This document shows, piece after piece, positions 49,091-51,314 of a stretch of 64,000 nt of DNA. The stretch's first letter is position 1. Each line of letters begins with the position of its first letter. The DNA is from Trueperaceae bacterium (GTDB taxonomy: Bacteria; Deinococcota; Deinococci; Deinococcales; Trueperaceae). The notes under the pieces were generated by a model that was not told the origin of the DNA, did not search any database, and worked only from the letters and a program-made list of their open reading frames with translations. The translations under genes were made by a program, and so were the position numbers. The stretch covers positions 2,208,001 to 2,272,000 of the forward strand of contig CBDCDZ010000004.1 of assembly GCA_965215565.1 (NCBI GenBank). Reading direction: 5' to 3'.

Positions 49091-49717
49091 ATGGATTTTC
49101 AAACGGAGCGCGAACTCAAATTTTCTTTAATGGACGAGTCGCTAGAAGAGGAGGCGTTGCAACTCGGCTTGGAGACGGAGGGTTTCAGCCTCGGACCTCA
49201 GCGTGTGGAGGTGCACCGTGACCTCTACTTCGACACGAGAAGAGGTCATTTGGAGCGCTCAGGCTTGGCGCTCAGGCGGCGCGTGATCAACGGCGGCGCG
49301 CCTCTCGCGACGCTCAAGGCGGCGGGCACGGCGCGGGGGGCGTTGCACGTCAGGGACGAGCTAGAGCTTCCATTCGAGGGTGAGGCGTGGCCGCGAGAGG
49401 TCCGCATGAGAGTGGCGGAGGTTGCGCCGCTCATCTCGCTGCAGCCCGTGGTGGCGCTGACGACGGAGCGCACCCGCTACCTCGTAGGGCGCAGAGGGGA
49501 AGAGGTGGCAGAGCTATCTTTCGATAGCGTGGAGGCGAAACGCTCGGGGGAAGAGGTGAGCGTGCATTTTGCGGAGTTAGAAATCGAGGCGCTACGGGCG
49601 GACGCTGACTTGGAGCGTATCGCGGGGGTGCTCGGTAAACTCTTAGCGCTCACCCCGAGCGGCGTGAATAAGCTAGAGCGCGCTTTGGCCCTTCTCAGTT
49701 TGGGCGCGTGGGCTTAA
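49091..49717 (+). CDS. CYTH domain protein
   Basis: ERELKF, DLYFDT, LRRR, ELEIE. Confidence 0.88.
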   Translation: MDFQTERELKFSLMDESLEEEALQLGLETEGFSLGPQRVEVHRDLYFDTRRGHLERSGLALRRRVINGGAPLATLKAAGTARGALHVRDELELPFEGEAWPREVRMRVAEVAPLISLQPVVALTTERTRYLVGRRGEEVAELSFDSVEAKRSGEEVSVHFAELEIEALRADADLERIAGVLGKLLALTPSGVNKLERALALLSLGAWA

Positions 49718-49741: not shown

Positions 49742-50311
49742 GTGACGCTCTACCTCATTCGCCACGCGCAAGCCGACGCGCGCGGACCCAAATATCCTGA
49801 CGACAGTCTTCGTCCACTCGTTGCCAAAGGTCACAAGCAAGCAAAGGCGCTAGCGAGGGCGTTTCATGTTCTTGGCGTACGGTTGGATAGACTGTTCTCG
49901 AGCCCCTACACTAGAGCGCTGGAGACCGCCCAGCCGTTGGGGGAGCAGCTCGAGGTGAAAGTTGAAACGCTCGCCGAACTGACCTCTTCGCGTTATCCAC
50001 AGCTCTTGGGGCGGCTTGTGGATAAGGGTGTGGATAAGGGTGTGGACAACCTCATGCACGAAGGGGCGAGCGAACCTGTGGATAAGGGTGTGGATAACTC
50101 GAGAAGTAGCACCGCAGACGGCGCGCACGTCGCCCTCGTCGGTCACGAACCCTACCTGAGCGAGCTGACCTCTTACCTCTTGACGGGGGACGCTTGGGAG
50201 GTCAGCATAAAATTCAAAAAAGCGATGGTGGTGCAACTCGGGGGACGCTTGGAGGCGGGTAAAATGACGCTTCAAATGATGACGCCCGTGAGCGTGTACA
50301 GGAAGTTTTAG
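49742..50311 (+). CDS. sixA: SixA-like histidine phosphatase with an internal VDKG-repeat segment
   Basis: LYLIRHA, RPL..KG, SSPYTRALETA, LVGHEP. Confidence 0.85.
   Translation: MTLYLIRHAQADARGPKYPDDSLRPLVAKGHKQAKALARAFHVLGVRLDRLFSSPYTRALETAQPLGEQLEVKVETLAELTSSRYPQLLGRLVDKGVDKGVDNLMHEGASEPVDKGVDNSRSSTADGAHVALVGHEPYLSELTSYLLTGDAWEVSIKFKKAMVVQLGGRLEAGKMTLQMMTPVSVYRKF
49993..50097. promoter_or_regulatory. Cluster of six DnaA-box 9-mers inside the sixA CDS
   Basis: TTATCCACA at 49993; TGTGGATAA at 50017, 50029, 50077, 50089; TGTGGACAA at 50041. Confidence 0.8.
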
Positions 50312-50369: not shown

Positions 50370-51314
50370 ATGGAGAGAGTGGAAGAACGTCCTGTTTTAG
50401 TCATCGCGGGTGCGTCCGGTGTCGTCGGTACGCACCTCATCCATCAGGCTAGAGAGCGCTACAACATCCGCATCCTGACGCGCCGCAGCAACATCCAAAC
50501 GCCTGCGGGCGTCACGCCTGTCGTGTGGAACCCGACTGCGGCTAAAGAGGGAGACGAGGCGGCGCTGCTCAGCGTCGGTGAAGCGCTTTCGGGCGCGGCG
50601 GCGCTCGTCAACCTTGCGGGTGCGTCGATTGCGGACGGAAGGCTGGGCGAAGACCATAAACGCCGCGTCCTGGAGAGCCGCGTCGACAGCACGAAGACGC
50701 TTTTGGCAGCGCATAAACGTAGCGCCGCGCCGCCGGGCGTCTGGCTGCAAGGCTCAGCGACGGGCTATTACGGCGACGCGGGCGAACGCGAACTCACAGA
50801 GGACGCGCCGAGCGCCGAGGATTTCTTTCTCGCGGACGTGTGTAAAGCGTGGGAAGCAGCCGCCGAGAACGCGAACGGTGCACGTCTCATCGTCAGCCGC
50901 ACCGGGCTCGTTCTCGCCCAAGATGCCCCCGCGTGGCAAAAAATGCTCTTGCCCATCAAACTTTTCGTGGGCGGGCGCTTCGGCGACGGCGAGCAGTGGT
51001 ATCCGTGGATCGACGCCGACGACCTCGCGCGGGCGCTGCTCTTTCTTACCGAAAATAGCGAGAGTAAAGGCGTCTACAACCTCTCTGCGCCGGAGCCCGT
51101 GCGCCAGATTGAGCTTGTCGAGCGGGCAGCGCGGCGCTTAGGACGCCCCGCCATCTTCCCCACACCTGCGCCGCTCCTGCGCCTAGCCATTGGTGAAGTC
51201 GCGGACGCGCTCCTCTTGCCGAGCGCCAAGGTGATACCAGCGAAGCTGCAAGCCGAAGGCTTCACCTTTCAGCGCGCGCATATAGGGGATGAATTGGATA
51301 AGCTTCTCGCCTGA
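50370..51314 (+). CDS. TIGR01777 family (YfcH-like) oxidoreductase
   Basis: GASGVVG, VNLAGASI, SATGYYG, FLADVCKAWE, GDGEQWYPWI. Confidence 0.9.
   Translation: MERVEERPVLVIAGASGVVGTHLIHQARERYNIRILTRRSNIQTPAGVTPVVWNPTAAKEGDEAALLSVGEALSGAAALVNLAGASIADGRLGEDHKRRVLESRVDSTKTLLAAHKRSAAPPGVWLQGSATGYYGDAGERELTEDAPSAEDFFLADVCKAWEAAAENANGARLIVSRTGLVLAQDAPAWQKMLLPIKLFVGGRFGDGEQWYPWIDADDLARALLFLTENSESKGVYNLSAPEPVRQIELVERAARRLGRPAIFPTPAPLLRLAIGEVADALLLPSAKVIPAKLQAEGFTFQRAHIGDELDKLLA

Follow-up and report, generated by a model that had tools for sequence, protein, structure and literature searches.

The window, a stretch of 64,000 nucleotides of contig C4 of the Trueperaceae genome G000 (G000:C4:2208001-2272000), carries a sixA gene flanked by a CYTH-domain gene and by yfcH. 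Inside the intact sixA gene lie six DnaA boxes, five perfect and one with a single mismatch, which together span 105 bp (49993-50097). Box 1 starts at 49993 on the forward strand, the others start at 50017, 50029, 50041, 50077 and 50089, all on the reverse strand, and every offset is a multiple of 12 bp. GGG spacers of 3 bp separate boxes 2 and 3, 3 and 4, and 5 and 6, and each of these pairs is a double box (two boxes in the same direction, 2-3 bp apart). The features of the locus are listed below; G001 and G002 are the other genomes of the genus, G005 belongs to another genus and G071 is its sister.

49091..49717, + strand: CYTH-domain gene, the upstream neighbour in G000, G001, G002, G005 and G071
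49742..50311, + strand: sixA, phosphohistidine phosphatase; intact 189-aa frame with the boxes in frame; RHA, RP, SP and GHxP motifs near-invariant among 92 homologues
49993..50001, + strand: DnaA box 1, perfect; faces box 2 head-to-head at a 24-bp offset; codes for R84 (third base)-Y-P-Q at the helix start
50017..50025, - strand: DnaA box 2, perfect; codes for L92 (third base)-V-D-K at the helix end
50024..50125, + strand: SixA variable loop, residues 95-128; low model confidence; holds boxes 3-6
50029..50037, - strand: DnaA box 3, perfect; 3-bp spacer from box 2 (double box)
50041..50049, - strand: DnaA box 4, one mismatch; 3-bp spacer from box 3
50077..50085, - strand: DnaA box 5, perfect; opens the last pair; P-V-D-K
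50089..50097, - strand: DnaA box 6, perfect; 3-bp spacer from box 5; G-V-D-N
50370..51314, + strand: yfcH (TIGR01777 family), next gene downstream in G000, G001 and G002, absent from this place in G005 and G071

Number, register and spacers of the boxes are as the initial annotation had described them, and so is their place between the SSPYTRA (residue 53) and GHEP (residue 134) motifs of an intact 189-aa ORF. The product passes the TIGR00249 cut-off narrowly (76.2 vs 74.5 bits); R7, H8, R58 and H135 are invariant or nearly so in 92 aligned rows, and the catalytic motifs are intact. In the AlphaFold model (mean pLDDT 90.7) boxes 1 and 2 code for opposite ends of a confidently modelled helix (residues 85-94), and boxes 3-6 fall in the variable loop, which has a pLDDT of about 57 at residues 101-120 and is approximately 25 residues longer than that of most family members. 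The earlier placement of the array in a protein loop holds for boxes 3-6 but not for boxes 1 and 2. It had also been suggested that the 12-bp period preserves the reading frame, and indeed this period corresponds to four codons as well as to the geometry of a double box with 3-bp spacing.

Six of the ten matches with at most one mismatch found in the window are within the 105 bp of the array. At the genome-wide rate of such matches (633 in 4.39 Mb) approximately 4e-9 clusters like this one are expected per genome. A contig of the public run X1, possibly the source sample itself, spans the whole stretch with 0 differences, which makes an assembly error at the array unlikely; the coverage of run X3 was limited to yfcH. 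Between 48800 and 51500 the promoter scan returned 0 sites, and terminators were at chance level (4 vs 3.3).

At least two perfect boxes, written in rare codons, were found at sixA in all three genomes of the genus. Taken together with the identical X1 contig, this disposes of the strain-specific repeat and of the assembly artefact, either of which the initial annotation had named as fatal to its reading. Box 2 is free of mismatches in each of the three. In G002 it is accompanied by a perfect box 1, the offset again being 24 bp; in G001 box 1 carries two synonymous mismatches, alongside a 12-bp pair that is perfect. Outside the genus, G005 shows a perfect box 1 followed at 15 bp by a box with one mismatch, and the sixA gene of G071, where box 1 carries two mismatches, has no box within one mismatch. 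Going beyond the initial annotation, the number of boxes ranges from one to six among the relatives. No perfect box was detected in sixA in the other 22 of the 26 loci with a located sixA frame (the frame was found in 26 of 30 loci and the remaining four were dropped). A second set of 29 loci, overlapping the first, had 26 without a perfect box anywhere in the locus; both sets include the unpublished genome G035, entered as a negative only.

The DNA-level comparison comprised the three genomes of the genus and one partial contig. Third positions are 53-59% identical between the sixA genes of G000 and G002. Box positions that end synonymous codons in A or T were kept in 5/5 cases, against a background of 59/151 (p about 0.009), so that the orthologue alignment proposed earlier came out in favour of 9-mers conserved at synonymous positions. 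Perfect boxes account for 7/8 VD[KN] triplets in sixA of G000, G001 and G002 vs 4/287 elsewhere in G000 genes, although the copies are not independent. In a relative represented in run X4, the 71 nt that end at box 3 hold 3 differences at most, as compared to 26 in the 199 nt upstream (p about 0.02); its box letters are bounded by this figure rather than read. Its loop is shorter: it could be aligned through box 3, after which 37 other letters follow in frame. A metagenome scan with a four-sequence alignment yielded 80 loci, none of them from the box-carrying clade (best 47% over full length).

The boxes appear to have left a footprint in the protein. Several of the SixA homologues that carry a name come from Trueperaceae. 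Of the homologues (164 found, 120 of them listed), 25 group with G000 in one clade, which has a support of 92/97 in a tree built from the top 60 with the loop kept. A loop with one to five VD[KN] triplets is present in 21 of the 25 clade proteins vs none of the 95 others (120 listed of 164). Among the matches listed, a tandem VD[KN] pair occurs in 13 of the 25 and a VD[KR]xVDN pair in 14; five, which are related to G002, carry a single VDN, and four have no VD[KN]. In the clade loops 58 of 61 VDx triplets are VDK or VDN, and the genome-wide share is 6.5% of 4540. A residue whose codons cannot end in T (K, E, Q, M or W) never precedes VD[KN] (0/58), as compared to 13% in the rest of the loop and 21% in the genome. 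The interchange of K and N is what would be expected under selection at the DNA level, because the 'AA' that starts both codons is kept. Spacer residues (G, P, L, A, D) and loop length vary among the relatives, and VD[KN] stays. Only 2 of 3323 predicted G000 proteins contain VD[KN]xVD[KN], and both code it as DnaA boxes.

It could be argued that the peptide itself is the object of selection, perhaps by providing SixA with a docking motif, and the VD[KR]xVDN pair in 14 of the 25 listed clade proteins is compatible with this. However, the K/N swap and the ban on preceding K, E, Q, M and W track the DNA and not the chemistry of the residues, and the same DNA motif is found between genes and, in other frames, as LST, IH[KRS] and WI peptides. 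Selection of the peptide is therefore highly improbable.

Neutral slippage deserves more weight, if only as part of the answer. A 12-bp unit containing a box could grow and decay unselected where the loop tolerates it. The common GGG spacer of three G000 units is a sign of recent duplication, the copy number varies, there are decayed copies (VDR, VNK and VSN), and a comparable array in a channel gene (see below) is missing in G001 and G002. Slippage probably generates the copies. As the sole cause it was already disfavoured and we consider it improbable, because boxes 1 and 2 are not repeat products, yet they keep rare codons at the low third-position identity given above; because VD[KN] is constant while the spacer residues differ; and because both proteins with the doubled motif use DnaA-box codons. 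Nor does it account for the distribution of 3-bp double boxes in Deinococcota, which are found in 38 of 61 genomes, the reversed control giving 0 of 61. On the whole, the boxes are very probably selected as DnaA sites.

Forty loci were taken from the double-box list with a bias to sites not obviously origins; 14 of them were oriC and 26 were not. Six of the latter 26 are inside recognised genes, namely two in prmC (LSTxLST), two in rqcH-like genes (LIH[KR]VIHS), one in hpf (AVDKAVDK) and one in pth, and two further loci are at uncertain N-termini. Elsewhere in the phylum, in-gene double boxes use three reading frames, either strand and unrelated genes. The hosts prmC, rqcH-like, hpf and pth are all translation-related, possibly by chance in a sample of this size.

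In G000, the dnaA gene maps to 2.670 Mb. Twelve boxes between dnaA and dnaN make up a complete oriC, which is built from the same 9-mer and 12-bp pairs as the array and is located 411 kb from sixA. The array is flanked by DNA of 33-36% AT vs 70% beside oriC, in agreement with the earlier statement that this is a non-origin cluster with no dnaA, dnaN or AT-rich element nearby. The density of boxes (six in 105 bp) and their oriC-like 12-bp pairs might suggest a cryptic second replication origin. This is extremely improbable, given the GC-rich flanks, the presence of the complete oriC and the absence of a skew inflection at 2.26 Mb; moreover, the boxes of the array point towards one another, with 15 bp of GC-rich spacer in between, in contrast to oriC arrays, which point outward. 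A simple DnaA-trio regular expression gave no match at five loci, oriC among them, and was given no weight here. The mapping against oriC and GC skew that had been recommended was informative in its first half only: the cumulative skew of C4 is weak, with a minimum at 3.15 Mb (about 0.48 Mb off the dnaA-dnaN origin) and a maximum at 0.29 Mb, an offset that may reflect inversions.

The array is one of four non-origin clusters in G000. Of the 37 perfect boxes on C4, eight belong to oriC, 15 to these four clusters and 14 are single, the last number being near the 7-20 expected from Markov models. The cluster at the 3' end of trpF (G000:C4:2727217-2727421) is common to G000, G001, G002, G005 and six genomes of family f2, where it shows head-to-head pairs 23-25 bp apart despite a different downstream gene. 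No other non-origin cluster that we saw is as widely conserved, and this one is the best candidate for a Deinococcota locus of the DARS or datA kind. Upstream of ilvD a perfect double box (G000:C4:3190716-3190736) is kept in G001 amid a diverged intergenic region. A second in-gene array, three perfect boxes with a 12-bp period read as VDKPVDKSVDN, is located in an Ion_trans_2 channel gene (G000:C4:3502474-3502506); it is absent from the orthologues, G001 having degenerate copies only and G002 none in a frameshifted gene. Conversely, at the positions of G000 that correspond to three box pairs of G001 and G002 there is no box, even with one mismatch allowed. The genus thus shows a turnover of clusters, as pairs and arrays present in one genome are missing at the matching sites of others.

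Treating contigs as whole circular chromosomes, the distance of sixA from the origin in half-chromosome units is 0.19 in G000, 0.09 in G001 and 0.09 in G005. In one case a distant gene is without boxes: sixA of G071 is at 0.74 and box-less, and its sister G005 at 0.09 has two boxes. An origin-proximal sixA (0.12-0.23) was also found in three of six box-less genomes. In six genomes with long contigs all 16 non-origin clusters are within 0.41 half-chromosome of dnaA (10 distinct loci, nominal p about 1e-4, with a threshold chosen post hoc and related genomes that are not independent).

The orientation of boxes also differs between origins and other sites. In 40 non-origin loci 24 of 24 adjacent opposite-strand pairs are head-to-head, 17 of them at 22-25 bp, whereas in 17 oriC loci 17 of 19 such pairs are back-to-back. 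Counted by distinct locus family, the head-to-head rule holds in 7/7 (p about 0.008). This brings to mind DARS, where the array would strip ADP from DnaA through its head-to-head boxes 1 and 2 and its tandem boxes, and would thereby promote initiation. The E. coli DARS1 and DARS2 cores (PMC5742627) have the same (+)(-)(-) order as sixA, a first box opposed head-to-head to a tandem pair with a 12-bp offset. The first offset is 24 bp in the array (15 bp in G005) vs 14 bp as measured here in DARS, about one helical turn more, the second being 12 bp in both. The strict DARS spacing is thus absent. Furthermore, DARS is non-coding while the sixA array is coding, its inverted box has decayed in G001 by two synonymous changes that left a perfect tandem pair, many clusters including the channel-gene array are without an inverted box, and no Hda was found in G000, where dnaA is the sole PF00308 match, so that recharging may not be needed. 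Taking these points into account, a DARS-like function appears quite unlikely.

The array also resembles datA in being a cluster outside the origin, at a distance of a few hundred kb. It differs from datA in its location in a coding region and in the absence of an IHF-like site and of a protein reaching the IHF cut-off. No IHF site with at most one mismatch to the consensus was found in the 400 bp surrounding the array, whereas the match in datA was perfect, and none of four HU/IHF-family proteins reached the IHF cut-off. The assignment to the datA (DDAH) type was rejected on these grounds. The four HU/IHF-family genes are at G000:C4:885070, 2842271 and 3663416 and at C2:23643, and none reaches the IHF or the E. 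coli HU cut-off. An overlap of the datA core with queG is contradicted by PMC5742627.

Another explanation is a local one: DnaA bound within the gene could act as a transcription roadblock or regulator and tie expression of full-length sixA and of yfcH downstream to the level of DnaA. DnaA roadblocks within transcribed regions are described for E. coli in the introduction of PMC11317965, and B. subtilis clusters also regulate neighbouring genes according to the portions available of PMC3245932 and PMC2533591, which deal with six DnaA-box clusters (DBCs). The tandem boxes have one orientation, the site persists at sixA across the genus, and CYTH-sixA-yfcH stay together in G000, G001 and G002 despite shuffled flanks. 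The persistence at sixA, with other pairs coming and going, is no less compatible with a local role than with a sink. On the other side, the gene that follows the box-bearing sixA of G005 is a different one, the box number is as variable as one to six, and searches turned up no replication link for the CYTH gene, sixA or yfcH. A roadblock specific for sixA is further weakened because arrays recur elsewhere in the phylum in unrelated genes and in both orientations. We regard the local explanation as rather unlikely.

DnaA is likely to bind the array, and to bind it cooperatively, to judge from related systems. In the part of PMC7988490 that was available, D. radiodurans DnaA binds TTATCCACA and the Kd drops with added boxes; similarly, pairs 2-3 bp apart are reported to be preferred by E. 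coli DnaA (PMC11317965; Stringer, Fitzgerald and Wade 2024, in part). The E. coli double boxes, as far as that text describes them, have the same direction and 3-bp distance as the three junctions of the sixA array; they are mostly upstream of genes and combine one good with one poor box, whereas those in sixA are near-perfect, repeated and in frame. The same source mentions that ChIP-seq in E. coli gave no DnaA at the in-gene guaB box.

The explanation that we favour, with about an even chance of being right, is that the sixA array serves as an origin-proximal DnaA sink restraining initiation, by analogy with the B. subtilis DBCs. Of the functions considered in the initial annotation (titration, reactivation, roadblock) titration is the best supported, while the datA type and strict DARS have failed and the roadblock has lost ground. 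The array would be copied early in each round and would, for this reason, soak up DnaA after initiation, its effect adding to that of the other clusters of the genome. If contributions are additive, box number and host gene are free to vary; variable copy number, interchangeable host genes and the bias to the origin make an additive sink the best fit. Counting against a sink, datA is inhibited by transcription through it (PMC5742627, in part), and transcription may likewise strip DnaA from the array.

Among known systems the array is most like a DBC without being a strict member, as it is coding and known from sequence. Judging from partial sources, B. subtilis DBCs and the Streptomyces clusters cited with them are dense groups of near-perfect boxes outside oriC, several per genome, like the sixA array. 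The likeness extends to proximity to the origin, to the location beside different genes in different species and to a host in which SeqA and Hda were not found; SeqA and YabA had no match in G000. Density outside oriC and origin-proximity are thus shared and intergenic location is not. The DBCs are intergenic, the eight stable B. subtilis DnaA sites being all intergenic in the available part of PMC2533591, and binding and negative control have been shown for them, whereas the sixA array is in a gene and dictates residues. In literature searches with thin coverage of subscription journals, we found no report of a conserved in-gene DnaA-box array or of such a cluster in Deinococcota; the accessible portions of PMC5835720, PMC4585315 and PMC12371093 contained nothing on in-gene arrays.

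A plausible history starts from codons that the family already had. YPQ and LLVD are present without boxes in many outgroup proteins, which suggests that codons already in place were probably the source of the first boxes, the Y-P-Q and L-V-D runs at the helix ends being turned into boxes 1 and 2. Subsequent slippage of a 12-bp unit, a box plus 3 bp, would have added double boxes to the loop, leaving the frame intact since 12 bp equal four codons, and selection on the DNA would keep them. If this is true, an evolutionary series can be seen from ordinary codons to boxes, to six of them and to decay, a replication-control signal shapes the sequence of a protein, and peptide repeats such as VDKxVDN or LSTxLST are footprints of DnaA sites.

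A broader proposal for how Deinococcota limit initiation without SeqA, Hda or YabA, which we put forward as speculative and unlikely in its full form, is that these bacteria control DnaA by dispersed, evolutionarily mobile, origin-proximal clusters with a grammar of their own, the sixA array being one nucleotide-state control site. In this grammar a double box would be combined with a head-to-head box at a distance of 22-25 bp, an arrangement equivalent to a DARS core plus one helical turn and the reverse of the oriC geometry, and the clusters would fall repeatedly in genes because their period equals four codons. In-gene arrays can be removed by synonymous recoding with the protein untouched, which would open DnaA titration to a direct test in relatives such as Thermus or Deinococcus.

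Two minor observations concern other loci. A head-to-head box and a double box lie directly 3' of a minC-like gene, which is below the family cut-off, at locus L187 (G060:C1:4958123-4958165). At loci L147 and L159 and near position 911620 of G000:C4, degenerate boxes stand beside or replace perfect ones and the same two G-to-A changes recur, which suggests a common route of box decay or gain.
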